Shown here: one piece after another, positions 25,250 to 58,013 of the stretch | How the letters are laid out: each line of letters begins with the position of its first letter | Numbering within the stretch: the stretch's first letter is position 1 | NCBI GenBank assembly: GCA_902492995.1 | Contig: CABUNR010000002.1 | Coordinates: 22,561 to 86,560, forward strand | Source of the DNA: an uncultured Bacillota bacterium | Lineage (GTDB): Bacteria > Bacillota_I > Bacilli_A > RF39 > UBA660 | Reading direction: 5' to 3' | DNA length: 64,000 nt | Program-made: the position numbers and the translations under genes | The notes under the pieces: generated by a model | Seen by the model: the letters and a program-made list of their open reading frames with translations, nothing else | Told to the model about the DNA's origin: nothing | Databases searched by the model: none

Positions 25250-25303
25250 TTTATTATATTTTATGTTATTAACAAAATATTAAAAAGAAAGAAGGAGATA
25301 AAA

Positions 25304-42501: not shown

Positions 42502-43137
42502 ATGAAAAAGATAATCTTTTTAGTAACTCTGTTTTTAATTTCACTAGAAAGTGTACAAGCGTCATGTAGTGATGATGAAATAACTAGATTATCAAAACTT
42601 GCAAATAATGTAACAGCAAGTTATACATATAATGAAAAAACAAATAAATTTATGATCACATTTACAAATGTTACAGATGATTTATCAATAAATGATCTTA
42701 CTCATAATAAGTACTATAGTAATTACCCAGAAGTAACAATAAAAAATTTTAGTTCTGGTAAGCATAAATTTTATATTTATGCTAGTGATAAAAATTGCTA
42801 TGAAAGTGCATTATCATCAAAATATATAGAATTACCTTACTATAATAAATATTATGCATATAATGAATGCAAAAATTTTGAAGAGTATTCTTATTGTAAT
42901 AAATGGCTAAATTCTAATCTTTCATATGATATATGGAAACAAAAAGTAGATGAATATAATAAAGAAGTAAAAAAAGTAGAAGAAAAAGAAGTAAAAAATA
43001 CAAAAAGTATTTTATATATATTAAAAGACATAATTATTCAATTTTATGTAAGTTATTATTATATAATTTTGCCAACAATAATATCATCTTTATGCCTAAT
43101 AATATATCTTAAGAATAAAAGTGAAGAAATTATTTAA
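42502..43137 (+). CDS. Small secreted Cys-containing protein with C-terminal TM anchor (paralog of 43227..43865)
   Basis: Signal peptide ending VQAS-C, six conserved Cys, C-terminal hydrophobic helix plus KNKSEE tail; about 40 percent identical to the neighbouring ORF by eye. Confidence 0.6.
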   Translation: MKKIIFLVTLFLISLESVQASCSDDEITRLSKLANNVTASYTYNEKTNKFMITFTNVTDDLSINDLTHNKYYSNYPEVTIKNFSSGKHKFYIYASDKNCYESALSSKYIELPYYNKYYAYNECKNFEEYSYCNKWLNSNLSYDIWKQKVDEYNKEVKKVEEKEVKNTKSILYILKDIIIQFYVSYYYIILPTIISSLCLIIYLKNKSEEII

Positions 43138-43226: not shown

Positions 43227-43865
43227 GTGATGAAAAAAAATATTTGTTTTTGTCTATTATTAATCCTTATTGTTTTGAGTCCCAAACATACAAAAGCTAG
43301 TTGCAACGATAGTGAAATAATAAGATTACAGAAATTAGCAAGTAATGTTAATATAACATATACAGCAAATGAAAATACACAAAAGTTTGATATTATAATT
43401 ACAAATTTAAAAAATGATTTGGTTTTAAAGGATGTTTATTCAAATAAAACTTATAATACTAATAGAGAAGTTACAATAAAAAATGCTTCTTCAGGTGCTC
43501 ATAGATTCTTGATATATGCAAAAGATAAAGAATGTACGAGTGATATATTAAAAGAAAAATATATAAAATTACCATTTTATAATTCTTATTATAAAAGAAG
43601 TGAATGTAAAGGCATAGAAAATTATGTATATTGTAGCAAATGGATGGATGTAAATTTAGATCAATCCGTTTATGAACAAAAAATAAATGAACATTTAAAC
43701 AATATGAAAAAAAATGAAGTTACGATAAAAGAAAATAATGGTAGTGGACTTTTAAAAAAAATAGTCGAGATATATACTAAATATTATTACATAATTATTC
43801 CAACGGCAATATTGATTATGTGCATAGCAATATATAAAATAAATAAAAAAGAAAAGTTAGTTTAG
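43227..43865 (+). CDS. Small secreted Cys-containing protein with C-terminal TM anchor (paralog of 42502..43137)
   Basis: Signal peptide ending TKAS-C, same Cys spacing and C-terminal anchor as the paralog. Confidence 0.6.
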   Translation: MMKKNICFCLLLILIVLSPKHTKASCNDSEIIRLQKLASNVNITYTANENTQKFDIIITNLKNDLVLKDVYSNKTYNTNREVTIKNASSGAHRFLIYAKDKECTSDILKEKYIKLPFYNSYYKRSECKGIENYVYCSKWMDVNLDQSVYEQKINEHLNNMKKNEVTIKENNGSGLLKKIVEIYTKYYYIIIPTAILIMCIAIYKINKKEKLV

Positions 43866-43878: not shown

Positions 43879-46794
43879 ATGAAAAAGAAATATTTATCTG
43901 TCTTGATTATACTTCTTTTATGTTTTACAGTAAAAGTAAAAGGTTGGTATAACGGTAATGGTGGATCCTTCCCTTCACCAAGTGGTTCAGCAACGTATTG
44001 CGAGTCATTTTTAAAACCTTGCCAATATGAAAATTATTCTTATTTTTCTTTGCAACTTAGATTATATTATTTTGATGGAAATGGTAATGCAGAACAAATA
44101 GGTGGTACATATTATGCAACAAATGAAAATGGATATAGTAAACTTTCAAAATTAGTGGATGCGAATAATATCATTAAAGTCGAAGGAATGAAAAATATTG
44201 GGCCAAAAGATCCTGATAGATATGATAAAGCAAGCGAGGAACTAAAAAAATTTTTGGGAGACACTGATGAGAATAAATTCACAAATGTAATAAACAATAA
44301 TTTAAGAGATTTTTTTAAAAAAGCTGCTGGAAATAATTTCGAATCAACATTAAATAAAGAAACAGAAAATGCAGATCCAAGCAACAAAAAACCAGCAAAA
44401 AAAGGTTATAGAATAATAATTGAACCAGCAATTTTATATATTAAAGCTCCATGGACTGGTGGTAATGGTGCTATCATTTCAGTAAAAGGTGCAGCAGTTA
44501 AAAGGCTTAACAATAAATATGTTTGGGGAATAGATAGCTTACCTATGGTAAAAGGTGACTCAACACAAGCCGAAAAAAATCAAACACCACAATCACAATT
44601 TTTATATACAACGTTTGATGATGTTGGAATAGCAAGAGCAGGAACAAATAAAGAAGAAGCAAAAAGACATTGCTCTAACATAAATCTTAATGAATTAGCT
44701 GACACAAAAAAAGGTTGTGGATATAACATTATAGATGTCGGAAAATTTATAAGTCACCCAGAATGTTATGATAAAAAAGTTTCTGGAGGAATAAAATGTA
44801 CAAATACAGATGAAAATAATATAGGAGATTTTAGTGAAACATATACAAAAAGGGAATGCACAAAAGAAGAAAAAGATACTAATACTAACACACAATATGG
44901 AAAAGAAATAAAATCAAATGAAAATTGTACATTATATTGTAAGGAATATTCTAAAGCAAGTTTTCCAGGCAGCCTAGATAAAATATTTGATATAAATAAT
45001 GTTACAGAAGGAACATATTTTACATGGATTGGACAACCTGGTAAAAAAGGCACTTTAATGAATATGTACATGACAACAAAATTAAGCTGTACTATTGTAG
45101 AAAAAGAAAATAAAAAATGTACTAGTGATGATATAAATAATCTAAAAAAAAGTGCTATAGATACAGTAAAAAATAAAAAGCTATCAGCATCATTAACTGG
45201 TGGTACAAACAAGAAAATAAAAGGAAAAAAATTAGATATTGTATCAACAACTACAACGGAGATAAATGAAATAAAAAAAGTTGAATTAAATAATGATGGT
45301 GTTAGTAATTTATTTGAAGTATCTAAAAAGTCATACTTTAAAATACCAGATGATGTTAATAGATTATATAATAGGGAAAGTGGAAATGTATTTGATGGCA
45401 CGGTAGCCATAGATGAAAGCATTTTTGATAGAAAAATGGGAGTTATATCATTAAGCAAAAATGATGATACCTCTAAAACATATGATTTGGAAATTTCAAA
45501 TGTAGATATTGGAAATGAAGAATTTAATAAATTAATTAGTACTTATGTATGTCATTATAGAATAACAGATTCATCGTGTGTTTGCCCTGAGGGAACAATT
45601 AAAGCTGGTGAACCTTTATATGATAAGTTGACTAATGGTAAAACATGCCCTGAATTACAAGCAACAGAATGTAATATATGCGAATGTGAAGAAGATTCAG
45701 ATTATCCTGGACAAGAAATATTACTAGGAGACGATGCTACAGCAGCAGCGTGTGAAAAGAAGAAAAATGAAATATGTTATGATAAAAATACATGCGATTA
45801 TAATGGAAAGAAAATTGATACATCAACCTGTGTAAAAGAACAAATGACTAAAGGATTAACTAAATCAGAGGCAAACATATATTGTAAACAACAATTATGC
45901 CCTGAATGTACTGATAAAAATGGAGATAAAGTTGACTTATCAGAATGTATATCAAAAGGAAATACATATAAAATTTGTGAATATAAATATTGTCCAAATA
46001 GTTTATGCCCAAATGGAATTTGTAATAGTTGTAGTAAAAATTGTTCTTGGAAATTGACAAAAAAATCAAAGACATCAATTGAATATTCAAAATCATGTTC
46101 AGATGGGAAAGATTGTGGAACTATTAAATTGTCATGCCCAGGTGGAAATAATAAAATGAATAATGCAGAAGATTGTGTGAAAAAACAATTAAATAGTAAA
46201 ATAAAAGGAAATACAATATCCACTGCATTAACTAGTGGATTAATAACAAATAATGATGTTCAAACTGCATTTAATGCATGTAGAAGTGAGGTATGCCCTT
46301 ATTCTGGAAGCAAAATAATATATAGACAAATAGATTTAAATGATCCATTTCCAGGAAAAGAACATAAAGGTACTAATACAAATGATGCTTTAAAATTATC
46401 AAACAATAATCAAAGCATTAGAACAAGAACACCAGGGTATAATTGGAATTCAAAAACAGTTATAGAATCAAAAATATTAAATGCAAGAGGTGCTAAAGGA
46501 TATGAACTATACAATAAAGATCCTTTATACATCATCAAATTGACACCAAGTACGATGAAAAAAATTAGAGCATATAATAAAAATAATAGTTATAATGATT
46601 TTAATTTAAAATGTACAAATAAAAATCAAAGTGCAGCATGTATAAGTAGATTTTTACATGAAAATACAGTTAATAATTTAAATGTAAAAGACTTTATTGT
46701 TTCATCATATGATGGAAAAAATAGTGTTAATGTATGTAACAATATGAACTATAATGAAGGCTCATTTAAATCATGCTATGAAAGTAATAATTAA
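43879..46794 (+). CDS. Giant cysteine-rich secreted protein 2 (971 aa), paralog of 38874..42416
   Basis: Signal peptide; same three conserved domains as protein 1 but with the LTGGTNKKI...YVCHY module placed before the single Cys-rich block. Confidence 0.7.
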   Translation: MKKKYLSVLIILLLCFTVKVKGWYNGNGGSFPSPSGSATYCESFLKPCQYENYSYFSLQLRLYYFDGNGNAEQIGGTYYATNENGYSKLSKLVDANNIIKVEGMKNIGPKDPDRYDKASEELKKFLGDTDENKFTNVINNNLRDFFKKAAGNNFESTLNKETENADPSNKKPAKKGYRIIIEPAILYIKAPWTGGNGAIISVKGAAVKRLNNKYVWGIDSLPMVKGDSTQAEKNQTPQSQFLYTTFDDVGIARAGTNKEEAKRHCSNINLNELADTKKGCGYNIIDVGKFISHPECYDKKVSGGIKCTNTDENNIGDFSETYTKRECTKEEKDTNTNTQYGKEIKSNENCTLYCKEYSKASFPGSLDKIFDINNVTEGTYFTWIGQPGKKGTLMNMYMTTKLSCTIVEKENKKCTSDDINNLKKSAIDTVKNKKLSASLTGGTNKKIKGKKLDIVSTTTTEINEIKKVELNNDGVSNLFEVSKKSYFKIPDDVNRLYNRESGNVFDGTVAIDESIFDRKMGVISLSKNDDTSKTYDLEISNVDIGNEEFNKLISTYVCHYRITDSSCVCPEGTIKAGEPLYDKLTNGKTCPELQATECNICECEEDSDYPGQEILLGDDATAAACEKKKNEICYDKNTCDYNGKKIDTSTCVKEQMTKGLTKSEANIYCKQQLCPECTDKNGDKVDLSECISKGNTYKICEYKYCPNSLCPNGICNSCSKNCSWKLTKKSKTSIEYSKSCSDGKDCGTIKLSCPGGNNKMNNAEDCVKKQLNSKIKGNTISTALTSGLITNNDVQTAFNACRSEVCPYSGSKIIYRQIDLNDPFPGKEHKGTNTNDALKLSNNNQSIRTRTPGYNWNSKTVIESKILNARGAKGYELYNKDPLYIIKLTPSTMKKIRAYNKNNSYNDFNLKCTNKNQSAACISRFLHENTVNNLNVKDFIVSSYDGKNSVNVCNNMNYNEGSFKSCYESNN

Positions 46795-46807: not shown

Positions 46808-47209
46808 GTGAAAGAATCGTTTTGGGGAGCAATGATAATATCATTTGGAGTTATAGCAATACTTTTTATATACTTCTTTCAAAATATTACAAATACTGAT
46901 CAACAAAATTATAACTTGCTTAAAGAAACAACAGAAGCAGCAATGTATGATTCAATTGATCAAGTTGAATATCAAAAGAATGGAAATATAAAAATTAATG
47001 CAGAAAAATTTATAGAAAATTTTATAAGAAGATATGCAGAAAATGCAAGCTTATCTAATACATATGTTATTGAAATATATCATATAAGTGAGTACCCTCC
47101 AAAGGTTAGCTTATTAGTTAAATCATCAGAACAAACAACAGCAACAGGAGAAGTAATGGATTTTCAAATAACAAATAGAATAGATGCAATATTAGAAACA
47201 CCATATTAA
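46808..47209 (+). CDS. TadE/pseudopilin-like membrane protein
   Basis: GTG start with RBS aggagg; N-terminal hydrophobic helix then a 100-aa soluble domain; first gene of the Tad-like operon. Confidence 0.35.
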   Translation: MKESFWGAMIISFGVIAILFIYFFQNITNTDQQNYNLLKETTEAAMYDSIDQVEYQKNGNIKINAEKFIENFIRRYAENASLSNTYVIEIYHISEYPPKVSLLVKSSEQTTATGEVMDFQITNRIDAILETPY

Positions 47210-47265
47210 TTTTGAAATTCAAAATTATATATAGATGCGAAATTAAGAAAGAAAGGGAGAAAGAT

Positions 47266-48108
47266 ATGAATAATTTTATGATTTCGTTACAAAAGTTTTT
47301 TAAAAACAAAAACACAGTTACTATAATAGGAGTAGTAGCAATAATATTAATCTTGTTCTTTGGATATCGTTATCAAATAAAGAAACAAGTAAGCCCTGTA
47401 ACTGGTATACCTGTTGCAGCACAAACAATTCAACCAAGAACTAAAATAACAGCAGATATGTTAGAGTATATCGATGTAGCACCTATTGTTTTACAAAAAG
47501 GTGAAGTAATAACAAATAAAAACCTTATAATTGGAAAATATAGTAATTATAATACTATAATTCCAAAGGGAAGTATGTTTTATAACGCTACAGTTATAAA
47601 TGAAGAAGAATTACCAGATTCAGCATTTATTGAAGTTGCTGATGGTGAAGTACCATATAACTTTCCAGTTACAATGGATTCAACATATGGAAATTCAATT
47701 TATCCAGGAAATTATATAGATATTTATATGAAAGCCGAAGGTAAAGATGGAAAATTAATGGTAGGAAAATTACTTGAGAATGTAAAAGTACTAGCAGTTA
47801 AAGATTCCGCAGGAAGACATGTTTTTGAAAATAGTGAAGAATCAAGAACACCAGCATACTTAATTTTTGGAGTAAAACCAGAAATAAATATACTACTTAG
47901 AAAAGCAAGTTATATGGGTAACTACTCAGTTGTTTTATTCCCAGTACCACATGGAGCAACAGTTGATGAAGATGGAACAACAACAGTTACATCAGAAACA
48001 TTAAAGAATTTCATAAATGTTAACACAGTAGCTAATGATGAAATTGAAGATAAAAAAGATACAACAACAAATACAACAACAACTACAAACACAAATAAAC
48101 AAGGATAA
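47266..48108 (+). CDS. CpaB/RcpC-like Flp pilus assembly protein (SAF domain)
   Basis: Start refined to ATG 47266 (RBS aagggag). N-terminal TM, then a SAF-like segment (TKITADMLEYIDVAPIVLQKGEV) and an RcpC-like segment (YPGNYIDIYM...LLENVKVLAVKD); Thr-rich C-terminal tail. Confidence 0.55.
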   Translation: MNNFMISLQKFFKNKNTVTIIGVVAIILILFFGYRYQIKKQVSPVTGIPVAAQTIQPRTKITADMLEYIDVAPIVLQKGEVITNKNLIIGKYSNYNTIIPKGSMFYNATVINEEELPDSAFIEVADGEVPYNFPVTMDSTYGNSIYPGNYIDIYMKAEGKDGKLMVGKLLENVKVLAVKDSAGRHVFENSEESRTPAYLIFGVKPEINILLRKASYMGNYSVVLFPVPHGATVDEDGTTTVTSETLKNFINVNTVANDEIEDKKDTTTNTTTTTNTNKQG

Positions 48109-48114
48109 TAATTA

Positions 48115-49539
48115 ATGAATGATTCAATGTTTTCCCAAATTGATTTTGGGGAACTAAAAAAGTATTTGGATGATGATGATATAACCGATATTTCATATAG
48201 TAATAATGGACAACTATTTGTAAAAACTTTATCAAAAGGTATTTACAGAGTTGAAAATGAAACTGTTAACAATGCATTTATGGAAAAATTAGCATTTCAA
48301 TGTGCTAATGTTATGGGTAAAACATTTAATATGGCTCATCCATTTCTAGATGCTGAAGGAGCAGAGTTACGTTTGAACTTTGTTCACGATTCGATAGCTA
48401 AAAATGGTATAGCTGTATTAATTCGTAAAACTCCAGCTAAGATAAGACTGGAAAAAGACAAATTATTAAAAGAGGATTATATCGAATTAGATATACATGA
48501 TTTTTTAATGAAATGTGTTTGGGGGCATTGTAATATAATTGTGTGTGGAGAAACTGGTTCAGGTAAAACCGAATTTGTTAAATATTTAGCAGCACATACA
48601 AAAGAAGATGAAAAATTAATTACAATAGAGGATACACTTGAATTACATTTGGATCGTATATTCCCACATAGGGATATAGTAGCAATGAAAACAAATAATA
48701 TTGCTTCATATAGCGATGTATTAGTAACTTGTATGAGACAGAATCCTAAATGGATTTTGCTTTCAGAGGTTCGTAGTGCAGAAGCAGTTCTTGCAATAAG
48801 AAACTCCATCTCATCAGGACACTATATTTTATCAACAATACATGCTGATAAAGCATCAAGTATACCTAACCGTATGTATAGTTTGCTTGAAACAAATCAA
48901 GATATTGATCAATTTTTAAAATCTGTTTATAGATATATTCAACTTGGAATATATATTAGAGGGTATCAAGATAAAAGAACAAAAAGATTTCATCGTGAAA
49001 TAGGAGAAGTTACAGAATTTTATGTAACCGAAGATAATAAGGCAGAATATAATACGATTTATAGAAAAACAACGACAGGAAAAATAGTAAGAAAAAATCC
49101 ATCTAAATATCTGATAGATTACTTAGATGCACAAGGAGTTACAATTTCAAAAGATGAAATAAAAGAAGGAGAAACAGACGGACCTAGGAAAAATATAGAA
49201 GATCAACCTTTAGATTCAAATACTTCACAAAATATTCAAAAAGGAAATATTCAAAATAATGTACAAGGTAATATTCCTAATAACATGATTAATAATCAAA
49301 CAAATATTAGACCTAATACAATAATTAATAATCAACAAAATAGACCAAATGTAGGAAGTAATCAAATGCCTGGTATGCCAAATAATATAAATAGTAATCA
49401 GCCAATGTATAATCAAGCAAATTATCAAAATAGACAAGTAATTAATAATTCACAAAATCAAGGTTATAATCAAATAAATTATAATACGAATAGACAAGTT
49501 GTTAATCCATATGGGGTTAACATGAATAATTCAGAATAA
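48115..49539 (+). CDS. CpaF/TadA-type (VirB11 superfamily) secretion ATPase with a 115-aa C-terminal N/Q-rich tail
   Basis: Walker A GETGSGKT, Asp box ITIEDTLEL, Walker B/His box KWILLSEVRSAEA...STIHA. The tail from residue 360 is more than half N plus Q. Confidence 0.85.
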   Translation: MNDSMFSQIDFGELKKYLDDDDITDISYSNNGQLFVKTLSKGIYRVENETVNNAFMEKLAFQCANVMGKTFNMAHPFLDAEGAELRLNFVHDSIAKNGIAVLIRKTPAKIRLEKDKLLKEDYIELDIHDFLMKCVWGHCNIIVCGETGSGKTEFVKYLAAHTKEDEKLITIEDTLELHLDRIFPHRDIVAMKTNNIASYSDVLVTCMRQNPKWILLSEVRSAEAVLAIRNSISSGHYILSTIHADKASSIPNRMYSLLETNQDIDQFLKSVYRYIQLGIYIRGYQDKRTKRFHREIGEVTEFYVTEDNKAEYNTIYRKTTTGKIVRKNPSKYLIDYLDAQGVTISKDEIKEGETDGPRKNIEDQPLDSNTSQNIQKGNIQNNVQGNIPNNMINNQTNIRPNTIINNQQNRPNVGSNQMPGMPNNINSNQPMYNQANYQNRQVINNSQNQGYNQINYNTNRQVVNPYGVNMNNSE

Positions 49540-49552
49540 AGGAGGTAAATTA

Positions 49553-50458
49553 ATGGAATATGTAGTTTTTCTAATTATTGCATTAGTAGCAGTATTTGTT
49601 ATTTCTTATCGAAATAGTAGCGGGGAAAAAGTATATAAATATATTTCAAATAATGCTGGAAATATTTATGAAAAATACTCTCCTTATTCATTTAAAGAAG
49701 TAAGAAGAAAAGTAAAAGAATTAGGACAAGATTATACAAAAAAACAATATTTAATACAAATTACAATATTTGCAGCAGGAGCATCAGTCATTACATATCT
49801 TTACTTTTATAGTTTAATTATTTCGATATTTTATGCAATAGTTGCTATAATGGTAATACCATATCTTCAATATCTTAGATGTAAAAGAATATATAGTGAA
49901 TTTATTTTTGAACAAATACAAGTTTATACAACAAACGTAATAATGGAATTCGCAACTACTCAAGCTTTTGTTAAAGCACTTGAAGGAGTATATGAATCAG
50001 GAGTTTTAGAAGATCCTGTAAGAAGCGATGTAAAATTAATGATTGATATGGCTTATGATAATGGTACAATTGATGAATCTATAAAATTTTTTAATAAAAA
50101 ATATGATTATTACATAGTAAAAAATACTCATCAATTGTTCTTACAAATAACAAATGAAGGTTCTAAAAACTCAAGCGATGCACTTGAAAATATGAGCCAA
50201 GATATAGATATGCTTGTTGAATCAGTGTATAGAGATAGAATAGATAGAGCCAATTTCCATAAAAAGTTTGTAAGATTTGGTATAGTTTTATATCTTATGG
50301 TTATGCTTGTTCAATTCTTATTAAGCCCAGAAAGCTATATTGAATTATTAAATAGTAATTTTACTGTTAAATTATTATTGCATTTAATAATAATAATTAA
50401 TAGTTATTTCTTACTAAATGGAGAAAAATTTTATAATGAGAATGTAGGTGCTGAATAA
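49553..50458 (+). CDS. TadB-like (GspF-domain) pilus assembly membrane protein
   Basis: 301 aa with N-terminal TM, a central pair of TMs and a C-terminal TM; position directly after the ATPase. Confidence 0.45.
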   Translation: MEYVVFLIIALVAVFVISYRNSSGEKVYKYISNNAGNIYEKYSPYSFKEVRRKVKELGQDYTKKQYLIQITIFAAGASVITYLYFYSLIISIFYAIVAIMVIPYLQYLRCKRIYSEFIFEQIQVYTTNVIMEFATTQAFVKALEGVYESGVLEDPVRSDVKLMIDMAYDNGTIDESIKFFNKKYDYYIVKNTHQLFLQITNEGSKNSSDALENMSQDIDMLVESVYRDRIDRANFHKKFVRFGIVLYLMVMLVQFLLSPESYIELLNSNFTVKLLLHLIIIINSYFLLNGEKFYNENVGAE

Positions 50459-51246
50459 TGGAATTTGTAGCAATAGCAGTAATAATGATTTTTGTTCTTA
50501 TCTATACAAATAGAATAGATGCAAAAAGATTTTTAGGTGATGTAGAACCATACTTTAAAATGTTAATGGAAGATGATTATGTATTTTTGCTTAATTTAAG
50601 ATATGGTAGTAAAGATTTAGATGTAACAAAATTATTTAATGCAAGAATAAAAAATGCAGCATTAGTATTTGTAGCAGCAATAATATATTTCTTATTTACA
50701 AATATATCATTTATAAATGTTTTAATTGCTTTTATATTAGCCATTGTAACATTTAAAATGCCTTATACAAAATTACAAAATTATTATAGAGCAAATCTTG
50801 CAAAAATTAATCAAATGTTACCTTATTATTTAAAAAGTTTGGAAATATTAATACAACATTATACAGTTCCAGTAGCACTTGCAAGAAGTATTGAAACAGC
50901 ACCAGATATATTTAAACCAGGATTAAAAAAATTAGTAGAAAAAATTGAAAGCGGTGATTCTAGTATTGATCCTTATATGGATTTTGCAAAAGAATATCCA
51001 GTTAAAGATTCAATGAGAATGATGAGACTTTTATATCGTTTAAGTTTAGGAGCTCAAGAAAACAAACAAGAACAATTAGTAATGTTTGCAAAAAACGTTT
51101 CAACATTACAAAATAAAATGCGTGAAGATAAATATAAAGATCGTCTTGATGCAATGGAAAAGAAAACAATGATGATGTTATTTGCAACAGGTGGTGGAAT
51201 TTTAGCGCTTTTAATGTTTGCAATGATGAATATGATGAGTATTTAA
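50458..51246 (+). CDS. TadC-like (GspF-domain) pilus assembly membrane protein
   Basis: 262 aa with the same topology class; start overlaps the TadB-like stop (taATG), indicating translational coupling. Confidence 0.45.
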   Translation: MEFVAIAVIMIFVLIYTNRIDAKRFLGDVEPYFKMLMEDDYVFLLNLRYGSKDLDVTKLFNARIKNAALVFVAAIIYFLFTNISFINVLIAFILAIVTFKMPYTKLQNYYRANLAKINQMLPYYLKSLEILIQHYTVPVALARSIETAPDIFKPGLKKLVEKIESGDSSIDPYMDFAKEYPVKDSMRMMRLLYRLSLGAQENKQEQLVMFAKNVSTLQNKMREDKYKDRLDAMEKKTMMMLFATGGGILALLMFAMMNMMSI

Positions 51247-51332
51247 CGACTACTTGACAAAAGATATTGATAAAAATACTAAAAAGAGTTATAATAAAAA
51301 TGTATATATATTAAAATAAGGGTGGTGAGATA

Positions 51333-51557
51333 ATGAAAGAAGCAGCAGGAGAAGCAAATATGACAGTAATAACAATTGTTTTAATAGCAGTAGTTTTAGC
51401 AGTTGGTACAGTAATTGTTAATGGTATGATGAGTAATACAAAAAATAGTTCTGCATGTTCTGCCTGTGGTGGTGTATGGAAAGGTGGAAAATGTGTAACA
51501 TCAAGTACAGATAATACCGTTATAGATTATAGTAGCTGTAAAGGTGAAATGAAGTAA
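51333..51557 (+). CDS. Flp/type-IV-pilin-like small protein with Cys-rich C-terminus
   Basis: 74 aa; charged leader MKEAAGEA then a hydrophobic helix NMTVITIVLIAVVLAVGTVIV, followed by a 35-aa tail with 4 Cys. Confidence 0.4.
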   Translation: MKEAAGEANMTVITIVLIAVVLAVGTVIVNGMMSNTKNSSACSACGGVWKGGKCVTSSTDNTVIDYSSCKGEMK

Positions 51558-51572
51558 TATGGAGGTGTCTAA

Positions 51573-51983
51573 ATGAAGCAAGGGATAGGATTTTCGGTTA
51601 CAATCAATATAATTGCTATATTTATAGTGGTTACCTTTGCTTTTTTAGTGACCACTTTAAATTATTATAAAACTTATAAAATTAATAATGCTATAACAAG
51701 CAGTATAGAAAAATATGAAGGTTATAATGATTTAGCCAAAACAGAAATAGAAGAAAAATTAACAAGTTTAGGTTACGTTAATGGAAGTGTTAAATGTAAG
51801 GATAATAATTTAAATAATAGTAAATTTAGTTATTGTATATACGAACTTGATTTAAATCAAAATACAGGAAAATTTAAATATAAAATTGTAACATATCTAA
51901 ATTTTAATATTCCAATTATTAATACAACTTTAAATCTTCCAGTAACAACAACTACAGAACCAATTTATTATTTTAGTGATTAG
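51573..51983 (+). CDS. TadE/pseudopilin-like protein
   Basis: 136 aa; short leader MKQGIG then a hydrophobic helix and a soluble domain with 2 Cys; paralogous architecture to the next ORF. Confidence 0.35.
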   Translation: MKQGIGFSVTINIIAIFIVVTFAFLVTTLNYYKTYKINNAITSSIEKYEGYNDLAKTEIEEKLTSLGYVNGSVKCKDNNLNNSKFSYCIYELDLNQNTGKFKYKIVTYLNFNIPIINTTLNLPVTTTTEPIYYFSD

Positions 51984-51994
51984 GGAGGTAATAT

Positions 51995-52423
51995 ATGAGA
52001 GAAGCTACAGGTAATGCGCTTTTAACTATGATGATGACCTCAATTATTGCTATAATAATGATTTTTTTTGTAGGATCACTTAGTTATTCAAAAGCATACA
52101 GATTGAAAAATTATATTATTAATGAAATAGAAGAAAATAAAACTTGGAATAAAAGTTTAAGCGATAATCTTGACTCTTATTTTAAGGAAGTAGGGTATAG
52201 TGTTAAAAGAAATAATAGTACATGCCCAACTTTAGATAATAATAACTGTGATTCAAGAAATTTGTATGATGGTGGATATGAGGCATGCATATATAGATGC
52301 GGTAATGGAAATAATGAGTATTATAAGGTTATTACATTTATGAAATTTGATTTTCCAGTAATTGGAAGTGCATTAAAATTTAAAGTACAGGGTGAAACAA
52401 AACCTTTTAATGATTTTAATTAA
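51995..52423 (+). CDS. TadE/pseudopilin-like protein
   Basis: 142 aa; MREATGNALLTMMMTSIIAIIMIFFVG leader/helix, soluble domain with 5 Cys. Confidence 0.35.
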   Translation: MREATGNALLTMMMTSIIAIIMIFFVGSLSYSKAYRLKNYIINEIEENKTWNKSLSDNLDSYFKEVGYSVKRNNSTCPTLDNNNCDSRNLYDGGYEACIYRCGNGNNEYYKVITFMKFDFPVIGSALKFKVQGETKPFNDFN

Positions 52424-52440
52424 AAGATTGGGGTGATAGT

Positions 52441-53421
52441 GTGAACGTAATTGTTTCAAATAAAAAACAAAAAATGCTTGAAAATTTAAATATTGAAATA
52501 ATAAAAGAATTAAATGGAGAATTTGATGTTGATGAAATAATTGATACATTTAAAAATTTCTTTTTTCAAAGAATGATATTAGATATAACAGCATTAAAAG
52601 ATTATAAAGATATCAGAACAATACAAAAGTTATCTTTATCTTTAGATATGAATAAAGTGATTTTGATTCTTGATGAAGATTCAAATACAACATCACCTGA
52701 ATTTATGTCTAAATTAATTTCAATTGGAATATATAATTTTACAACAAATATAGAAGGCGTTATGTACTTGTACAATAGTCCAAATACATATAGAGATGTA
52801 GCACACCTACATATTATAGACAACCCAACAGTAGTTACACAAACTGATACAAAAACAAATACTGTTTACGTAGACAGATATGTAGAAGCTCCACCTGTTA
52901 AAACAAATAGAGTAATTGGAATAAAAAATGTTACTAAGCAAACTGGTGCAACAACATTAACTTATATGATGAAAAAAATGCTTAAAAATTTATATTCAGT
53001 TGTTGCGATTGAAGTTGAAAAATCTGACTTTAGATTTTTTAATGATAGAGAACTTTTATCATCAACAAATAGTAGTATAGGAAATATGGTTAGTAAATAT
53101 AAAGATAAAGATGTAATTTTACTTGATGTAAATAATAGCGAAAATGCTTTGGGATTATGCGATGAGGTAATTTATTTAATAGAACCATCAATGGTAAAAT
53201 TAAATAGACTTATGATCATAAATCCAAAAATATTAAATGATATTAAAGGAAAAAAAGTAATATTAAATCAAAGTTTACTAAAACAAAAAGATGTAACTGA
53301 TTTTGAATATGAATCAGGATTGAAAATATTTTATAATATGCCACCTTTAGATGAAAGAGCAGATTATAGCAAAGAATTGGCAGAATTTTTAAATAAATTA
53401 GGTTTTACAAAAGTAAATTAG
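52441..53421 (+). CDS. TadZ/CpaE-like protein with a degenerate ParA/MinD-type nucleotide-binding loop
   Basis: GTG start; N-terminal 130-aa receiver-like domain, then VIGIKNVTKQTGATTLTYMM where a MinD/ParA P-loop (KGGVGKTT) would lie but without the signature Lys-Gly; D-rich segment LLDVNNSE. Confidence 0.4.
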   Translation: MNVIVSNKKQKMLENLNIEIIKELNGEFDVDEIIDTFKNFFFQRMILDITALKDYKDIRTIQKLSLSLDMNKVILILDEDSNTTSPEFMSKLISIGIYNFTTNIEGVMYLYNSPNTYRDVAHLHIIDNPTVVTQTDTKTNTVYVDRYVEAPPVKTNRVIGIKNVTKQTGATTLTYMMKKMLKNLYSVVAIEVEKSDFRFFNDRELLSSTNSSIGNMVSKYKDKDVILLDVNNSENALGLCDEVIYLIEPSMVKLNRLMIINPKILNDIKGKKVILNQSLLKQKDVTDFEYESGLKIFYNMPPLDERADYSKELAEFLNKLGFTKVN

Positions 53422-53442: not shown

Positions 53443-53471
53443 TTGACAAAAATATAAAAATAACGTATGAT
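53443..53471 (+). promoter_or_regulatory. Candidate sigma-A promoter (TTGACA, 17 bp spacer, TATGAT) followed by perfect palindrome AGATGTgaaACATCT at 53481..53495
   Basis: Consensus -35 with ideal spacing, immediately upstream of the first T4SS-module gene. The palindrome lies about 10 nt after the -10 element. Confidence 0.55.
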
Positions 53472-53519: not shown

Positions 53520-53882
53520 ATGATGAATATGGTAAACGTATTAGCTAACGTAAAATGTGGAACAATTGAAATAGATAGTATAATACCTGGAACAATTTCT
53601 ACATTTGTTACAATCTTAAAAATTGCAGTACCTTTAATTTTAATCGTTTTAGGAATGCTTGATTTAGCAAAAGCTGTAATGGCAAATGAAGAAAAAGAAA
53701 TGAAAGAAGCACAAAAGAAACTTATAAAAAGAATCATTTATGCAGTTGTTATTTTCTTCGTAGTAGCATTAGTACAATTTGTATTCTCACAATTATCTAA
53801 AGCCGATACTAATAATGCCAATGGTACATCAAATGCAACAGCTTGTATTTCATGTTTCATTAATGGAAATTGTGGTAGATAG
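53520..53882 (+). CDS. VirB2/TrbC-like conjugative pilin candidate
   Basis: 120 aa; two hydrophobic helices separated by a charged loop (LDLAKAVMANEEKEMKEAQKKLIKR). The pattern is nearly identical to the C-terminus of the next ORF; Cys-rich tail CISCFINGNCGR. Confidence 0.5.
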   Translation: MMNMVNVLANVKCGTIEIDSIIPGTISTFVTILKIAVPLILIVLGMLDLAKAVMANEEKEMKEAQKKLIKRIIYAVVIFFVVALVQFVFSQLSKADTNNANGTSNATACISCFINGNCGR

Positions 53883-53964: not shown

Positions 53965-55236
53965 ATGAGGTGTATTATGAAAAGACATTTAAATATAAAT
54001 AAATTTTTAATGGTAGGAGTAGCACTCTTTTGCCTATTTTTTACAGTGAATAATGTAGAAGCAAAAGAATTTATTTGTTATTATAGAGATCCAATGTATG
54101 ATAATGCGGCGAAATGGAAAATAAGCAGTCCATATATCAAAGTACATTATAAAAATGGCAAAGCTACAGTTCAATGGTATGATCATAGCACCAATAGCGA
54201 ATTAGGAAATAAACTTTATTACGCAGTAAATGATGCTTATGAAGAAATATCACCAAAAAGTGGTTCTCAATTGGCTGATAGCGATTTTTCTAATGGATGT
54301 CCGTCTAAAATCGATAGAATGACATTGCCTGGATATGATAATGGAAATGTTATTTTTGATGTATTTAAAAAAGGTACTGAAGAGTATAATTTATTTTATG
54401 ACCAAACATTATATGAAACAGGAAACAAATATAGTAAAGAATTAAAAAGTATATATAATAGTGGTAGCATGAAAACAAAAAAATGTTATCAAAGTGGTTT
54501 AAATTTTGATCCTTCTAATGAGTATTCACAAGCACATTTTTGCTGGAAACCAACATTTGTTCAAGAAGATGCGGTGTCAAATGGAACAACAAATGGTGGA
54601 ACATCAAATAATACAAATAAGGAATATATTACATGTCCTTATGCTAGTGATGGGCATGTTTCAACTGATGCTGGAAATGTAAAACCATATCTTATAATTA
54701 AATATAATAAAAGTACAAAAAAGACAGAGGCTACAAGTGAACTTGCAAATACTTCTGCAACAATAAATGTTCATATTGATTTTTCAAAATTGAATGGTAA
54801 ATGTCCGAATACTGTATATACCGATGCAAATTATGAAAATATATATTCAAATATATCAGAAGTTCCTGATAAAGGAGATGCACATATGTTTGGATTAATA
54901 AAAAAAGTAAGTTCAACTAAGAAACCTACTGATACAGGAAAAACTGGATGTGATTTAATCGGAGATAGAACACTTGGAATTGTAAAAAAATTATATGCGT
55001 TAATAAGATTTTTAGTTCCTGCAATAATAATTGTTTTATCAGTTCTAGATTTTACAGGTATTGTATTGTCAGGTGAAACAGAAAAAATGGAAAAAGCAAA
55101 AAAAAGATTCGTAATAAGAATTGTAAGTGGAATGCTTGTTCTATTTGTACCAGCTATACTAGAGATGTTATTAAGACTAGCTGGTATAATTGAATCAAAT
55201 GAGGATTTAGTTAATGCTGCGTGTAATCTTTTTTAA
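53965..55236 (+). CDS. Secreted protein carrying a C-terminal VirB2/TrbC-like pilin domain
   Basis: Signal peptide, 330-aa Cys-containing extracytoplasmic domain, then LIRFLVPAIIIVLSVLDFTGIVLSGETEKMEKAKKRFVIRIVSGMLVLFVPAILEML. This parallels residues 30-95 of ORF 53520..53882 (LKIAVPLILIVLGMLDLAKAVMANEEKEMKEAQKKLIKRIIYAVVIFFV). Confidence 0.5.
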   Translation: MRCIMKRHLNINKFLMVGVALFCLFFTVNNVEAKEFICYYRDPMYDNAAKWKISSPYIKVHYKNGKATVQWYDHSTNSELGNKLYYAVNDAYEEISPKSGSQLADSDFSNGCPSKIDRMTLPGYDNGNVIFDVFKKGTEEYNLFYDQTLYETGNKYSKELKSIYNSGSMKTKKCYQSGLNFDPSNEYSQAHFCWKPTFVQEDAVSNGTTNGGTSNNTNKEYITCPYASDGHVSTDAGNVKPYLIIKYNKSTKKTEATSELANTSATINVHIDFSKLNGKCPNTVYTDANYENIYSNISEVPDKGDAHMFGLIKKVSSTKKPTDTGKTGCDLIGDRTLGIVKKLYALIRFLVPAIIIVLSVLDFTGIVLSGETEKMEKAKKRFVIRIVSGMLVLFVPAILEMLLRLAGIIESNEDLVNAACNLF

Positions 55237-55253: not shown

Positions 55254-57662
55254 TTGGGTAATTTGATTTATTTTTTAGATGATAAAAATTCGTTCAAAAG
55301 TACTATACGAGCTTTTTTTGCCCAAATATTAAAATTTTTATATAGATGGATAAGCTCTGCAATAGAAGCAATGTATAATTTAGCTTCTAATGATTTTGGA
55401 CTTGGAAGTTATGTTGAAAATTTATCAGGAAAAATATTTGTTGTACTTATAATATTTATGATATTTAAAGTAACTATTTCAATAATGACATATGTAGTTA
55501 ATCCAGACGCTTTTACTGATAAAAGCAAGGGAATTCAAAATGTTTTTAAAAGAATAGTTATTTCAATTGTATTATTAGTGTCAATAAATCCAATATTTTC
55601 AGCTTTATCATATATTCAAGATGCCATAATTGAAGACGGAGTTATTGAAAATTTAATTATGGGGAGTAATAATGATACAGTTCATGAAACAAGTGACGGT
55701 GAATATGTTTATTTGATACAAATAAGCCCATATTGTGAAACGTGGGCACCAAATAATAAGGTAGTTGCATTTTCAAAAGGAGACATGATTTCTCTATTAA
55801 CCTTAAAACCATTTATACAACCATCTACTTCAACAACAGGAGCTGATTCAAGAAAAGATGAATTGCTGGATTTAGAATATTGTGGTGTTGATGTTAGTAA
55901 GGATATTGACTATATTGATAGTACAGAAATGGGCTTTTATCAAAGTATATCTGGTCCTAAAAGTACAGATGACTTTTTGAGATGGGAAATTTATAATGGA
56001 TATACTGGTACATGGTCTATTGAAAATAATGTTTATTATTTAGATTTTGACTATTTATGGGCACTTGTATTTGGAATAGTAGTGTTATTAATAGTGATAA
56101 GTTTCTGTTTTGACGTTGTAAAACGTGCATTAACATTATTAGTTTTACAAGTTATGGCACCAATTCCTATAATATCCTATATAAGCCCTGATAGTAAATC
56201 ATCAAATATGTTAAATTCATGGTTTAAAAAATTAGGTTCAACATGGGCAAGTTTATTCATAAAAATGTTATCATTAAGTCTTGCAATAAGTTTTATTGGA
56301 GCAATATCAGACTCTGCAATTATAAAAGATGGTAGTGGAGGACTTATTATACAATTAATTGCAATCGCAGGTACGTTAATGTTTGCAAAAGAATTACCTA
56401 AGTTATTAGAAGAGTTAATTCCAGGGTTAAAAATGGGTAATGGCTTCGAATTAAATCCATTTAAAAAAATAAGTAAAGAAGCATTAGGAGGAAATATGTT
56501 ACTTGGAGCAGGTGCTGGAATATTAGGAGCAGGGCTTGCTGGTGGAACTAATGCTATACATAGACTTGGAAGTGGAATATCTCAAGGTGTGAATAATGCA
56601 AGAAATGTAAGTGGCTTTAGAAATAAAGCAGGAGCAATTTTAAATAGCTCTTTAAGAGGTGCTGCAAGAGGTGTTGGAAGCGGATTAACAGGAGCAGCAC
56701 GAGCAGGAATTAATGCTTTTGGAAGAACATCAAAAGATGGTCGAATATTTAATGGTGCTTGGAATGGATACCAGACATCAATGTATTCTAAATTATTAAG
56801 AGAAGATAATTTAAGAAAAGCTGGATTAGAAAATGCATCACTAGGTGATAAAATGAAGTTTGCAGCTGGATCAGTACTTGCTGATGGAGCCAGATATGTT
56901 GGTGTTCTTAATAAAGGACAAAGTGAATATTTAGATGCTGCACGAATGGATAATCAGATTAAATCAATGGAATCTAAATTAAGTGAAGACAAATTGAATT
57001 TAACAATTGAAAAGCAAAATGCTTTAGCTCCATTCCAGGAATATGCAAAATATGCTCAAAAAATAAAAGAAAAGATAGATAATGAATCAAATGTTAAAAC
57101 AGCTCAACAACTTTTAGAGGATGCACAAGCAACTGGTAATGCATCAGATATTGCTGCTGCAAGAAATATATTAGAAGAAGCAAAAAAAACAGCTGGTCAA
57201 AAATTACTAAGTACAGATAGAGAAACTAGAGCATATGCTAGTAAGTTACAAGAAATAAGAAATAACAATAGTATATTAAAGGATAATAATTACGACTTCA
57301 TAGATGATAAAGGATTCTTTAAAGCAAGTTCAATTTATAATGCTAATTCTCAAGCTAATATTACTGAAATGAGTTATGCATCTAGAGAAAAAGAATTTGA
57401 AATTAGGCAACAACAAATTGATTCTATCAAAAATAGTAAAGAATATATGGAAGCACATGATGAAAATTCAAGAGCTAAATTACAAAACTCTAGTCGTATA
57501 AATAGAGATGTTCAACAACCTGGATATAAACCAAGTGCTGGTCCAGCTCAAGAAACTGCATTTGATCGATATGTAGGTGGACATCCTGGAGGACATAATT
57601 CTGATCATGGACCAGGTAGGCAATTTCTACCACCAGATAATGGTGGAAATCCTAGACCATAA
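55254..57662 (+). CDS. VirB6/TrbL-like polytopic conjugation channel protein with long C-terminal coiled-coil/Gly-rich region
   Basis: 802 aa; 6 or more TM helices in the first 420 aa, a Gly-rich segment (GGNMLLGAGAGILGAGLAGG), then a 350-aa hydrophilic tail ending Pro/Gly-rich. The architecture resembles ConG/TrbL-type proteins of Firmicutes ICEs. Confidence 0.55.
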   Translation: MGNLIYFLDDKNSFKSTIRAFFAQILKFLYRWISSAIEAMYNLASNDFGLGSYVENLSGKIFVVLIIFMIFKVTISIMTYVVNPDAFTDKSKGIQNVFKRIVISIVLLVSINPIFSALSYIQDAIIEDGVIENLIMGSNNDTVHETSDGEYVYLIQISPYCETWAPNNKVVAFSKGDMISLLTLKPFIQPSTSTTGADSRKDELLDLEYCGVDVSKDIDYIDSTEMGFYQSISGPKSTDDFLRWEIYNGYTGTWSIENNVYYLDFDYLWALVFGIVVLLIVISFCFDVVKRALTLLVLQVMAPIPIISYISPDSKSSNMLNSWFKKLGSTWASLFIKMLSLSLAISFIGAISDSAIIKDGSGGLIIQLIAIAGTLMFAKELPKLLEELIPGLKMGNGFELNPFKKISKEALGGNMLLGAGAGILGAGLAGGTNAIHRLGSGISQGVNNARNVSGFRNKAGAILNSSLRGAARGVGSGLTGAARAGINAFGRTSKDGRIFNGAWNGYQTSMYSKLLREDNLRKAGLENASLGDKMKFAAGSVLADGARYVGVLNKGQSEYLDAARMDNQIKSMESKLSEDKLNLTIEKQNALAPFQEYAKYAQKIKEKIDNESNVKTAQQLLEDAQATGNASDIAAARNILEEAKKTAGQKLLSTDRETRAYASKLQEIRNNNSILKDNNYDFIDDKGFFKASSIYNANSQANITEMSYASREKEFEIRQQQIDSIKNSKEYMEAHDENSRAKLQNSSRINRDVQQPGYKPSAGPAQETAFDRYVGGHPGGHNSDHGPGRQFLPPDNGGNPRP

Positions 57663-57686: not shown

Positions 57687-58013
57687 ATGAATAATAATTA
57701 TTTAATACCGGCCAATTCAAAAAAATCACAATTATATTTTGGATTATTTAATAAATTTGATTTAATATTATTTGGTAGTGGAGTAGGAACATCATTATTA
57801 TTAATGACAATAATTCCTGTTGGAAATTATATTCTTTCAATAATAATATGTTTACCTGCTGTAATAACTGGGTTTCTAGTATTCCCCGTTCCAAACTACC
57901 ATAATGTTTTATCTTTATTAAGGTCGATATGGCAATTTTATACAACAAGACAAAAATTCATTTGGAAAGGTTGGTGTGTAAAAGATGAGTTCAAAGAAGA
58001 CGATAAAAAGTAG
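57687..58013 (+). CDS. Small two-TM protein in VirB3/PrgI/TcpE-like position
   Basis: 108 aa with two hydrophobic helices, immediately upstream of VirB4. Confidence 0.4.
   Translation: MNNNYLIPANSKKSQLYFGLFNKFDLILFGSGVGTSLLLMTIIPVGNYILSIIICLPAVITGFLVFPVPNYHNVLSLLRSIWQFYTTRQKFIWKGWCVKDEFKEDDKK

Follow-up and report, generated by a model that had tools for sequence, protein, structure and literature searches.

The window analysed here is a stretch of 64,000 nucleotides (nt), with a G+C content of ~24%, from an uncultured Bacillota bacterium (contig CABUNR010000002.1). Its positions 46808-53421 hold nine open reading frames (ORFs), all on the + strand, which an initial annotation had described as a tightly packed Tad/Flp-like pilus operon. 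The ORF list of the window bears out the coordinates, the strand and the packing, and the gene content is indeed Tad-like. The operon is not stand-alone, however: here, as in all related genomes mapped, it lies inside a VirB4/VirB6/VirD4 cluster of type IV secretion system (T4SS) genes. We think it probable, with some reservation, that the nine genes form a divergent assembly module for a Tad-type (type IV) filament inside a domesticated T4SS cluster. They are referred to below as g1 to g9, with protein lengths in amino acids (aa):

46808..47209, + strand: g1, DUF5411 protein, 133 aa (PF17424, E 1e-48)
47266..48108 (TTG alternative 47212), + strand: g2, CpaB/RcpC-like protein (PF16976, TIGR03177)
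48115..49539, + strand: g3, hexameric secretion ATPase of the TadA/CpaF-VirB11-FlaI group (T2SSE, 88 bits)
49553..50458, + strand: g4, TadB-like platform protein, divergent T2SSF (fold and transitive homology)
50458..51246, + strand: g5, TadC-like platform protein, paralog of g4 (hhalign, plasmid homologs)
51333..51557, + strand: g6, Flp-sized candidate major subunit, 74 aa, 4 Cys (N-terminal motif, helix)
51573..51983, + strand: g7, minor pilin-like protein, 136 aa, 2 conserved Cys (DUF4320-related)
51995..52423, + strand: g8, minor pilin-like protein, 142 aa, 2-4 Cys (DUF4320-related, paralog of g7)
52441..53421, + strand: g9, TadZ/CpaE-like protein (ParA/MinD fold of an AlphaFold2 (AF2) model)

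Organization and conservation of the module

The gaps between consecutive genes, from g1 to g9, are 56, 6, 13, -1, 86, 15, 11 and 17 nt. Gene callers start g2 at ATG 47266, which gives a protein of 280 aa, and the gap between g1 and g2 falls to 2 nt with the TTG start at 47212. All nine ORFs are real genes, as identical proteins are encoded on 18 public contigs.

A one-genome-per-species collection was scanned with the core of the g3 ATPase and yielded at least 591 stretches encoding relatives. The locus comparisons reported here concern the 80 best of these, fetched from related genomes in which g3 is 78-92% identical, and 14 loci were mapped in detail. Orthologs of g1-g5 are found in 77-80 of the 80 loci and those of g6-g9 in 63-68, with many loci ending early on the g6-g9 side. 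In all 14 mapped loci, as far as each of them extends and with occasional missing or duplicated genes, the same order is found: a 530-aa polytopic protein (f530), a 211-aa protein, zero to two giant proteins, g1-g9, one to three VirB2-like genes, VirB6, VirB3 and a split VirB4.

The secretion ATPase and the platform-like pair

The annotation of g3 as a CpaF/TadA ATPase stood at the level of the family, since Pfam T2SSE matches it at 88 bits, and not at the level of the clade, where g3 is equidistant between VirB11, CpaF, FlaI and archaeal GspE. Among NCBIfam models VirB11 ranks first (113 bits), followed by TadA-conj (99), TrbB (94) and FlaI (81), all far under their cutoffs. The VirB11 family TIGR02788 has a cutoff of 249.95 bits, which g3 does not reach, and two platform-like proteins come directly after the gene; neither is expected of VirB11 sensu stricto. 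Sequence matches in the PDB lie just as close together, with archaeal GspE at 61.6, CpaF at 61.3, FlaI at 61.1 and VirB11 at 59.8 bits. The protein is made of a ~330-aa core and a Q/N-rich low-complexity tail (residues ~330-474). Tail length differs between species, in which the proteins have 358-474 aa, and a 36-nt tandem repeat lies at 49276-49350 within the tail region of the window copy.

Neither g4 nor g5 has a direct Pfam or NCBIfam match. Their paralogy emerges when family alignments enriched with plasmid and distant members are compared (hhalign 97.8%, E 1e-12, over 157 columns in local mode; 98.9% in global mode), and the same comparison is negative with close orthologs only (Neff 1.8). 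This paralogy and the position after the ATPase are those expected of TadB and TadC. In the AF2 model of g4 (pLDDT 82.5), transmembrane (TM) helices at the N-terminus are followed by a helical bundle in the cytoplasm and by two long helices at the C-terminus. When the model was compared to the PDB with Foldseek, the cytoplasmic domains of GspF proteins were the sole compact high-probability matches: EpsF (2vmb and 3c1q, with probabilities of 0.97 and 0.94, TM-scores of 0.71 and 0.67, rmsd 3.0-3.5 Å and E ~1.6) and OutF (5nbg, probability 0.87), with TM-scores over the GspF matches ranging from 0.63 to 0.71. This predicted fold is supportive of a TadB-like identity, without deciding it.

A second line of evidence is transitive. 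Over its full length, g4 matches the protein that occupies its position on a plasmid of Priestia koreensis (BLASTP 1e-13). That homolog is named 'type II secretion system F family protein' by PGAP and scores 24.2 bits (E 3.4e-5) against Pfam T2SSF, whose gathering score is 25.2. Scanning 18 distant g4 relatives and the plasmid homologs with Pfam produced two sub-threshold T2SSF matches only, and a homolog search seeded with a T2SSF-matching relative (P0381) returned a singleton. Homologs of g5 are present on plasmid pE81-53 (E 4e-16) and on plasmids of the pLS20 family. Sequence searches of the PDB with g4, g5 and the family profiles of g4 and g9 gave noise only, with no GspF or TadZ. The names TadB and TadC proposed in the initial annotation thus keep the paralogy, the fold and the transitive T2SSF link in their favour and lack a direct family match. 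From sequence and model, g4 and g5 may be taken as a TadB/TadC-like pair, an identity that is supported only indirectly.

A distant g4 homolog (26% identity) was also noticed on a metagenome contig with chromosomal context (L095, 9209-14539), adjoining an RcpC gene. The order there is RcpC, g4-like gene, 267-aa ORF and 330-aa ORF, with no ATPase between RcpC and the g4-like gene. This locus may represent another variant of the module.

CpaB-like, pilin-like and TadZ-like proteins

The CpaB-like gene of the initial annotation was confirmed. PF16976 matches g2 at 34.3 bits, over its gathering score of 28.8, which places g2 in the RcpC/CpaB family; TIGR03177 matches at 41.5 bits (E 9e-11), under its cutoff of 71. 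The protein has an N-terminal TM helix, a weak SAF match, the RcpC domain and a Thr/Asn-rich C-terminal tail, and is 30% identical to the 'CpaB' of Bacillus plasmids. Its presence in a monoderm had been considered unusual, which it is not: rcpC is known from Gram-positive tad loci (PMC3244431), and CpaB-like genes are found on 364 Bacillales plasmid records, 358 of them from Bacillus.

Three genes had been called TadE-like (g1, g7 and g8), and none of them matches the TadE Pfam family at E values up to 1. The first is instead a DUF5411 protein. It starts with MKESFW[GA], has a hydrophobic N-terminal helix and no Cys, and is homologous to and collinear with the gene-36-like protein of the pLS20 family and the DUF5411 protein of pE81-53. 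It is a candidate minor pilin or pilus-associated protein. Kinship of g1 with DUF4320, g7 and g8 was considered and rejected, as hhalign finds none past the N-terminal helix. By contrast, g7 and g8 are paralogs of each other (hhalign 100%, E 1e-53) and both are related to DUF4320 (hhalign ~95%, E ~1e-8; for g7, 94.6% and E 7e-8), the family of pLS20 gene 40.

The N-terminus of g6, MKEA[AST]GEAN[ML]TV, is nearly invariant in 66 orthologs. Next comes a hydrophobic helix, and then a short domain in which 4 Cys are usual (0-6 among orthologs). A short leader is common to g6, g7 and g8, with M[KR][EQ]x[IV]G in g7 and M[KR]E[AS]x[GAS]N in g8. In the window, g6, g7 and g8 have 4, 2 and 4 Cys, in agreement with the Cys-containing pilin-like subunits described initially. 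It was also right that these leaders depart from the classical G/xxxxEY motif: none has Glu at +5 or EY, and g6, which starts MKEAAG-EANMTV, lacks both Glu at +5 and Tyr at +6 and does not match the Flp family. Flp-like pilins without Tyr at +6 have already been described (PMC3244431).

No Secretin or Peptidase_A24 match exists in the window ORFs scanned, in line with the initial statement that the window has neither a secretin nor TadV. The polytopic protein f530 was tried as the absent peptidase; it has a conserved VGFDLKK, but it was rejected for the lack of an A24 match and the wrong spacing of its conserved Asp residues.

The TadZ-like assignment of g9 stood by fold and not by sequence, since g9 has no Pfam, NCBIfam or PDB sequence match and no named TadZ was among its matches. 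Its C-terminal half, modelled by AF2 with pLDDT 72-93, resembles ParA, MinD, FlhG and HypB in Foldseek (E 1e-5 to 1e-3). The Walker A sequence, GIKNVTKQTGATT, is without the GK[ST] lysine and is conserved among orthologs. The N-terminal domain of ~150 aa is conserved and poorly modelled. An extra N-terminal domain joined to a ParA/MinD domain is the architecture known for TadZ/CpaE, and g9 combines it with the ParA/MinD fold and the non-canonical Walker A by which TadZ/CpaE proteins are recognised. A weak match links g9 to an AAA_31 protein of pE81-53, whose Walker A is GAQRGLGATT.

Several results weigh against a Tad-type filament acting together with a T4SS. By profile or PDB scores g3 is inseparable from true VirB11. 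The platform-like proteins have no direct T2SSF match, the Foldseek E-values of g4 (~1.6) are non-significant, and hhalign comparison of the g4 and g5 profiles with E. coli HofC was negative. The subunits g6-g8 are without the canonical +5 Glu or the Flp EY motif, and the -1 Gly of g8 is not strictly conserved. Besides the missing Peptidase_A24 match, no GspO homolog was found in six-frame ORFs of the window or of the fetched loci (L003-L097, within 10 kb of the module). With these departures from canonical pilins, the processing of the subunits and the formation of a filament can only be proposed. The physical adjacency of Tad-like and T4SS genes does not prove functional coupling. Finally, we know of no canonical relaxase in the integrative and conjugative elements (ICEs) of Mycoplasma, whose T4SS is similar, and the absence of a relaxase from the cluster, described below, therefore does not exclude DNA transfer or mobility.

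It might thus be argued that there is no filament at all, and that g3 is a genuine VirB11-type ATPase accompanied by g1 and g4-g8 as lineage-specific membrane parts of the T4SS channel. VirB11 is the best NCBIfam match of g3, and VirB11 is how the literature names its plasmid homologs (PMC8557374, PMC1196294). The lack of a T2SSF Pfam match, of a detected prepilin peptidase and of a canonical cleavage motif would fit as well. However, the 113 bits of g3 fall short of the 250 required for VirB11, and its distance to CpaF, FlaI and archaeal GspE is no greater. Paired platform-like proteins, CpaB and a TadZ-like ParA protein are all present, and to our knowledge VirB11 systems need none of them. 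Four proteins moreover are laid out like pilins, in that a short polar leader precedes a single hydrophobic helix and a small exported domain. We therefore regard a channel without a filament as unlikely. A VirB11-clade ATPase accompanied by membrane proteins outside the T2SSF family was the outcome held at the outset to speak against a Tad system; what we found is ambiguous in this respect, an ATPase whose best match is VirB11 but under its cutoff, and membrane proteins that fall outside T2SSF by direct match and inside it by fold and transitive homology.

Genes around the module

The module takes the middle of a single cluster of same-strand genes that extends from ~37.2 to 65 kb, roughly 28 kb. 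Upstream of g1 lie five genes without a family match in Pfam and NCBIfam scans:

37195..38787, + strand: f530, polytopic membrane protein, 530 aa, C-terminal domain extracellular, conserved start of the cluster (upstream ortholog in 67 of 80 loci)
38874..42416, + strand: 1180-aa secreted Cys-rich giant protein, 62 Cys, putative adhesin (signal peptide visible, paralogy)
42502..43137, + strand: exported protein, 211 aa, anchored in the membrane at its C-terminus (orthologs in 66 of 80 loci)
43227..43865, + strand: 212-aa paralog of the 211-aa protein (sequence)
43879..46794, + strand: 971-aa secreted Cys-rich giant protein, 43 Cys, directly upstream of g1 (paralogy)

The two giant proteins are paralogous (BLASTP 1e-56 and 2e-45), and their copy number varies from 0 to 2 between species. 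Cys makes up 5.3% of the 1180-aa protein and 2.4-5.4% of the exported proteins of the cluster (1.5% in g7), versus 0.9% in cytoplasmic proteins of the window. Proteins at a position analogous to that of the 971-aa giant are encoded on plasmids, namely the Tie adhesin in the pLS20 family, a thioester protein in Paraclostridium, an Ig-like protein in Priestia and an 852-aa 'conjugal transfer protein' on pE81-53.

The giants are conserved in their N- and C-terminal thirds and variable in between, and both share the C-terminal motif IDLxxPFPGKEH...TPGYNWNS. In one metagenome-assembled genome (MAG; GCA_964308555.1, locus L003, 2444-4919), IS110-family and DDE_Tnp_1 transposase genes lie between the two 211-aa genes; apart from this insertion sequence (IS) insertion, that copy of the cluster is identical.

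Downstream of g9 the cluster continues with T4SS genes:

53520..53882, + strand: VirB2-like T4SS pilin, two TM helices, 4 Cys (PF18895 21 bits, weak; MMCAP2_0566/Mbov_0396, weak)
53965..55236, + strand: 423-aa exported protein with a C-terminal VirB2-like domain (PF18895 25.8 bits, gathering score 26.6)
55254..57662, + strand: VirB6/TrbL-like channel protein (TrbL_4 31.9 bits, over 27; MMCAP2_0566 E 1e-7)
57687..58013, + strand: VirB3/TcpE-like small membrane protein (TcpE 18.8 bits, weak; conserved position)
57985..58536, + strand: N-terminal fragment of a split VirB4, 183 aa (VirB4_plasma positions 96-276, E 7e-14)
58533..60317, + strand: VirB4 ATPase, C-terminal two thirds, 594 aa (VirB4_plasma (Mbov_0397) 347 bits, E 2e-103)
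60338..62068, + strand: membrane-anchored CHAP peptidoglycan hydrolase, VirB1 analog (CHAP E 2.7e-10)
62078..62746, + strand: 222-aa lipoprotein-like protein with a C-terminal anchor (sequence; no family match)
62840..64000, + strand: VirD4-type coupling protein, N-terminal 387 aa in the window (full protein 744 aa)

The VirB2-like genes occur in 1-3 copies per locus. The C-terminal VirB4 ORF maps to positions 294-890 of the Mbov_0397 model, and its 347 bits are under the equivalog cutoff of 590; it further matches CD1110 (165 bits), AAA_10, P-loop_TraG and CagE_TrbE_VirB. The division of VirB4 into two overlapping ORFs is also seen in related genomes. In locus L009, where VirD4 is full-length, it scores 305 bits against the CD1115 family (cutoff 250), and its domains are T4SS-DNA_transf, TrwB_AAD_bind and TraG-D_C. 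VirB4, VirD4, VirB6/TrbL and a cell-wall hydrolase, the parts by which a Gram-positive T4SS is recognised, are thus all present.

There is no terminator-like site between the Tad-like module and the T4SS genes. Sigma-70-like promoter sites with 11/12 consensus matches, which are consensus-level evidence only, were noted at 51267-51295 (before g6) and 53443-53471 (before the first VirB2-like gene). They lie in the two gaps of >80 nt in or just after the module, and a strong ribosome-binding site follows each.

Chromosomal location and descent

The window before ~35 kb is a housekeeping region, with genes for LigA, PflB/PflA, UppP, NadE, PRPP synthase, NadD, DacB and SpmA/B-like proteins, and VirD4 is followed by rhodanese, DedA, RmuC and Lon. 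A phage or plasmid origin of the window is ruled out by the housekeeping genes in the first 35 kb and after VirD4. Upstream flanks vary by species (ScpAB, PflBA, RluA, SecA) and are housekeeping wherever recognised. Among the cluster proteins, Pfam and NCBIfam scans gave no match to relaxase, integrase or replicon families, with unconventional relaxases possible. The borders of the cluster, in the window and in L009, are free of integrase, relaxase and DDE recombinase genes, and neither of the first two was recognised in the flanks of the 80 loci, whose proteins were clustered and read by eye rather than scanned with profiles. The T4SS is thus not adjoined by the relaxase plus integrase/recombinase or replicon that would mark a conjugative element.

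Of the 80 best loci, nearly all belong to MAGs of uncultured bacteria that bear the labels Bacilli, Tenericutes, Mollicutes, 'Acholeplasma sp. CAG:878' or Ca. Fimihabitans, a clade which we take to be GTDB order RF39 or a close neighbour. One locus is in a complete MAG chromosome record of 1.26 Mb.

In seven genomes with adjacent PflB/PflA the divergence of the cluster could be set against that of housekeeping proteins. Identity to the window is 69-71% for PflB and 50-55% for PflA. It is 79-82% for the g3 ATPase, 71-72% for g4, 61-63% for g1, 58-60% for g5, 54-55% for g9, 52-54% for g2, 48-57% for g6, 39-47% for g7, 37-40% for f530, 27-34% for g8 and 28-32% for VirB6. Cytoplasmic parts of the cluster are therefore more conserved than a glycolytic-type enzyme, and surface parts far less. 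This is the divergence pattern of an old, vertically inherited and selected machinery, not of a recent mobile element.

A recently acquired integrated conjugative element, or its decaying remnant, would account for the match of the T4SS parts to Mycoplasma ICE and Clostridial ICE families, for a chromosomal neighbourhood that varies by species and for the IS elements in one MAG copy. Against it, the ORFs are intact and in the same order in the mapped loci, their divergence tracks or is below that of PflB/PflA while the surface parts have diverged strongly, a combination that indicates long vertical descent, and integrase, relaxase and DDE recombinase are missing from the borders here and in L009. 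Recent acquisition is very improbable. Residing in the chromosome with neither relaxase nor integrase close by, and diverging at the pace of housekeeping genes, the cluster is therefore a machine that has been domesticated and is inherited vertically.

Relatives on plasmids

At the DNA level, a search with the 6.6-kb region found nothing in plasmid or phage collections, and tblastn with g3, g5 and g2 against plasmids gave low-identity matches only (~28-33%). The top plasmid matches listed are from Bacillus, Priestia, Paraclostridium, Brochothrix, Paenibacillus, Peribacillus and Enterococcus.

The fullest relative is on pE81-53 of B. cytotoxicus, where a large 'conjugal transfer protein' is followed by DUF5411, CpaB-like and AAA_31 proteins, a T2SS/T4P/T4SS ATPase, two membrane proteins, an 88-aa ORF and DUF4320, and then by a VirD4-like protein, relaxase, TcpD, TcpE, VirB4 and an M23 peptidase. 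Phmmer E-values against its proteins are 4e-5 for g1, 1e-24 for g2, 5e-36 for g3, 9e-16 for g4, 4e-16 for g5 and 4e-3 for g9. The plasmid conjugates experimentally at ~1e-2 (PMC8725734). The same module is found on the Priestia koreensis plasmid and on a metagenomic element of pXO2_28 type (ArdC, SSB, PXO2_28_C protein, integrase), both with no T4SS genes in the stretch inspected. These loci share with the window the ordered series of surface protein, DUF5411, CpaB, ATPase, membrane pair, small ORF and DUF4320, adjoined on pE81-53 by the T4SS. Unlike the window, pE81-53 and the Priestia plasmid carry a relaxase and the metagenomic element an integrase, and all are plasmid- or element-borne. 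Their TadZ-like gene precedes the ATPase and is without the N-terminal domain of g9, VirB2-like genes, giant Cys-rich proteins and a MKEAAGEAN-type subunit are missing, and identity is ~25-35%.

A reduced form of the module occurs in the pLS20 family (genes 36-41), on Paraclostridium and Enterococcus plasmids and as CDS 19-23 of pAW63 (PMC1196294). It is collinear with the window in the DUF5411-like protein, the ATPase, the two membrane proteins and DUF4320, placed inside a conjugation operon after an adhesin, and differs from it in having no CpaB and no TadZ-like gene and in being borne by plasmids with relaxases. These plasmids also encode 47-aa hydrophobic peptides. Genes 36 and 38-41 of the pLS20 family have been listed as 'Unknown', its VirB11 homolog as unusual for Gram-positive T4SSs, and the family was said to encode no pilus components (PMC8557374). 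Transfer of pLS20 needs fluid conditions (PMC11730352). The sole mention of DUF5411 that we found is a prediction, based on natural language processing, of a CpaF/PilC/DUF5411 system in Clostridia (PMC9523054). We found no description in the literature of a Tad-T4SS composite, nor of these plasmid blocks as Tad-like.

The plasmid relatives bear on whether the nine genes might be a free-standing Tad/Flp adhesion pilus, serving colonisation and lying beside T4SS genes by chance. CpaB, the ATPase, the TadZ-like protein and the small subunit are Tad-like content, the promoter-like sites before g6 and the first VirB2-like gene would allow separate transcription units, and Gram-positive Tad loci with rcpC and tadZ are known (PMC3244431). 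Chance is nevertheless hard to reconcile with the adjacency of VirB2-like, VirB6 and VirB4 genes in all loci mapped, which persists though the flanks change, or with the absence of a terminator-like site between the modules. The composite, moreover, recurs independently on Bacillus and Priestia conjugative plasmids and on the metagenomic element, and the closest plasmid relatives of g2-g5 that we found sit in the same architecture, in transfer regions wherever neighbours were inspected. We find a free-standing pilus distinctly unlikely, and continue with a Tad-type module inside a domesticated T4SS cluster.

Comparison with known systems

With canonical Tad/Flp systems (Aggregatibacter tad, Caulobacter cpa and Gram-positive tad) the module shares the core order of ATPase, platform and platform and the list of parts, namely CpaB/RcpC, a TadZ/CpaE-like protein, a TadA/CpaF-like ATPase, a TadB/TadC-like pair, a small major subunit and minor subunits of larger size. 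The absence of a secretin is as expected of monoderm Tad loci (PMC3244431). The differences are the lack of G/xxxxEY, of TadE or Flp matches and of TadV in the window, the remote-only T2SSF relationship, the position of the TadZ-like gene at the end of the module and the union with a T4SS.

As an analogy, the T4SS of Patescibacteria is the closest conceptual parallel. Those bacteria have a chromosomal T4SS of monoderm type, mostly relaxase-less and with arrays of VirB2-like PF18895 proteins, which was proposed to be co-opted beyond conjugation (PMC12102498). The cluster of the window is likewise chromosomal and relaxase-less, with PF18895 pilins and an uncultured small-genome host. Unlike it, the Patescibacteria clusters have no reported Tad-like module, and their type IV pili are not a T4SS component (PMC12102498). 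The lineage studied here belongs to Bacilli, and its T4SS parts resemble Mycoplasma ICE families.

These families (Mbov_0396/0397, MMCAP2_0566) score best for VirB4, VirB6 and VirB2-like proteins, all under the family cutoffs. Mycoplasma ICEs are mobile and multi-copy elements of wall-less hosts, and we know of no Tad-like module or peptidoglycan hydrolase in them. A precedent for a type IV filament serving a T4SS is the R64 thin pilus, which in the account cited in PMC12102498 is needed for mating-pair formation in liquid. It differs from the window in its diderm host, T4bP class and PilV adhesins, and there is no module-level homology.

Proposed function and significance

In the mechanism that we propose, the g3 ATPase would power the machine and, acting on the g4/g5 platform, would polymerise the small Cys-containing g6. 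The minor subunits g7, g8 and possibly g1 would prime or cap the filament. Bridging of membrane and wall would fall to g2, and g9 would position the machine, so that both together would scaffold and localise it. The Cys-rich exported proteins would offer adhesive surfaces that evolve fast and are stabilised by disulfides. With the adjacent adhesins as its tip or decoration, the filament would cross the wall and capture a partner cell, and the VirB4/VirB6/VirD4 channel would then transfer DNA or protein.

What is new here is a Tad-T4SS composite in which the subunit motif is non-canonical and two DUF families supply the minor subunits. New as well are its fixed place in the chromosome of a large gut lineage of uncultured bacteria and its homology to a module that had gone unrecognised on conjugative plasmids of Gram-positives. 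In the textbook view, Gram-positive T4SSs have no pili and mostly no VirB11 (PMC8557374, PMC12102498). Our results indicate that on plasmids of the pLS20/pAW63 type the ATPase known as VirB11 is part of a Tad-like module, of which fuller forms retain CpaB and a TadZ-like protein together with a pair of platform proteins and pilin-like subunits. DUF5411 and DUF4320 thereby gain a concrete functional hypothesis, and pLS20 and pE81-53 open a way to ask whether a filament underlies mating-pair formation.

The retention of ~28 kb under strong constraint in hundreds of uncultured gut species, with at least one genome of ~1.26 Mb, suggests that cell-cell interaction is central to their lifestyle. A bolder conjecture, which we hold to be possible rather than likely, is that the cluster is a domesticated, probably indispensable cell-cell contact machine of RF39-like Bacilli, in which a non-canonical Tad-type filament, built with no classical prepilin peptidase and bearing the hypervariable Cys-rich adhesins, docks onto other bacteria, and a relaxase-less T4SS then exchanges or imports DNA or proteins. 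If so, Bacilli would have in it their own counterpart of the T4SS of Patescibacteria or of chromosomal transfer in Mycoplasma, and the block of 'VirB11 plus unknown genes' on many Gram-positive conjugative plasmids would encode a previously unrecognised mating pilus.

Other observations in the window

Some features outside the cluster are worth recording. A 535-aa ORF (14712-16319) contains, at 15499-15867, a 15-nt repeat in 24.6 copies that encodes (EEPTV)n. A tandem duplication of 399 nt with 79% match, at 24843-25646, gave rise to an ORF of 118 aa and, in the next ORF, of 307 aa, to an N-terminal domain homologous to it. Sporulation-type genes lie at 10855-11307 (- strand), 22727-24016 and 32636-34804 (CotZ-like, SpoIID, DacB-like and SpmA/SpmB-like Gate proteins), in a lineage whose records say Tenericutes or Mycoplasmatota; they agree with the sporulation predicted for RF39 (PMC10868615). 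Two membrane-anchored proteins, at 8441-9544 (- strand) and 34903-36096 (+ strand), have similar C-terminal ends (...NPYIIK and ...NPYVVGE). The former has a weak DUF6273 match, and the latter sits between the housekeeping genes and the cluster.

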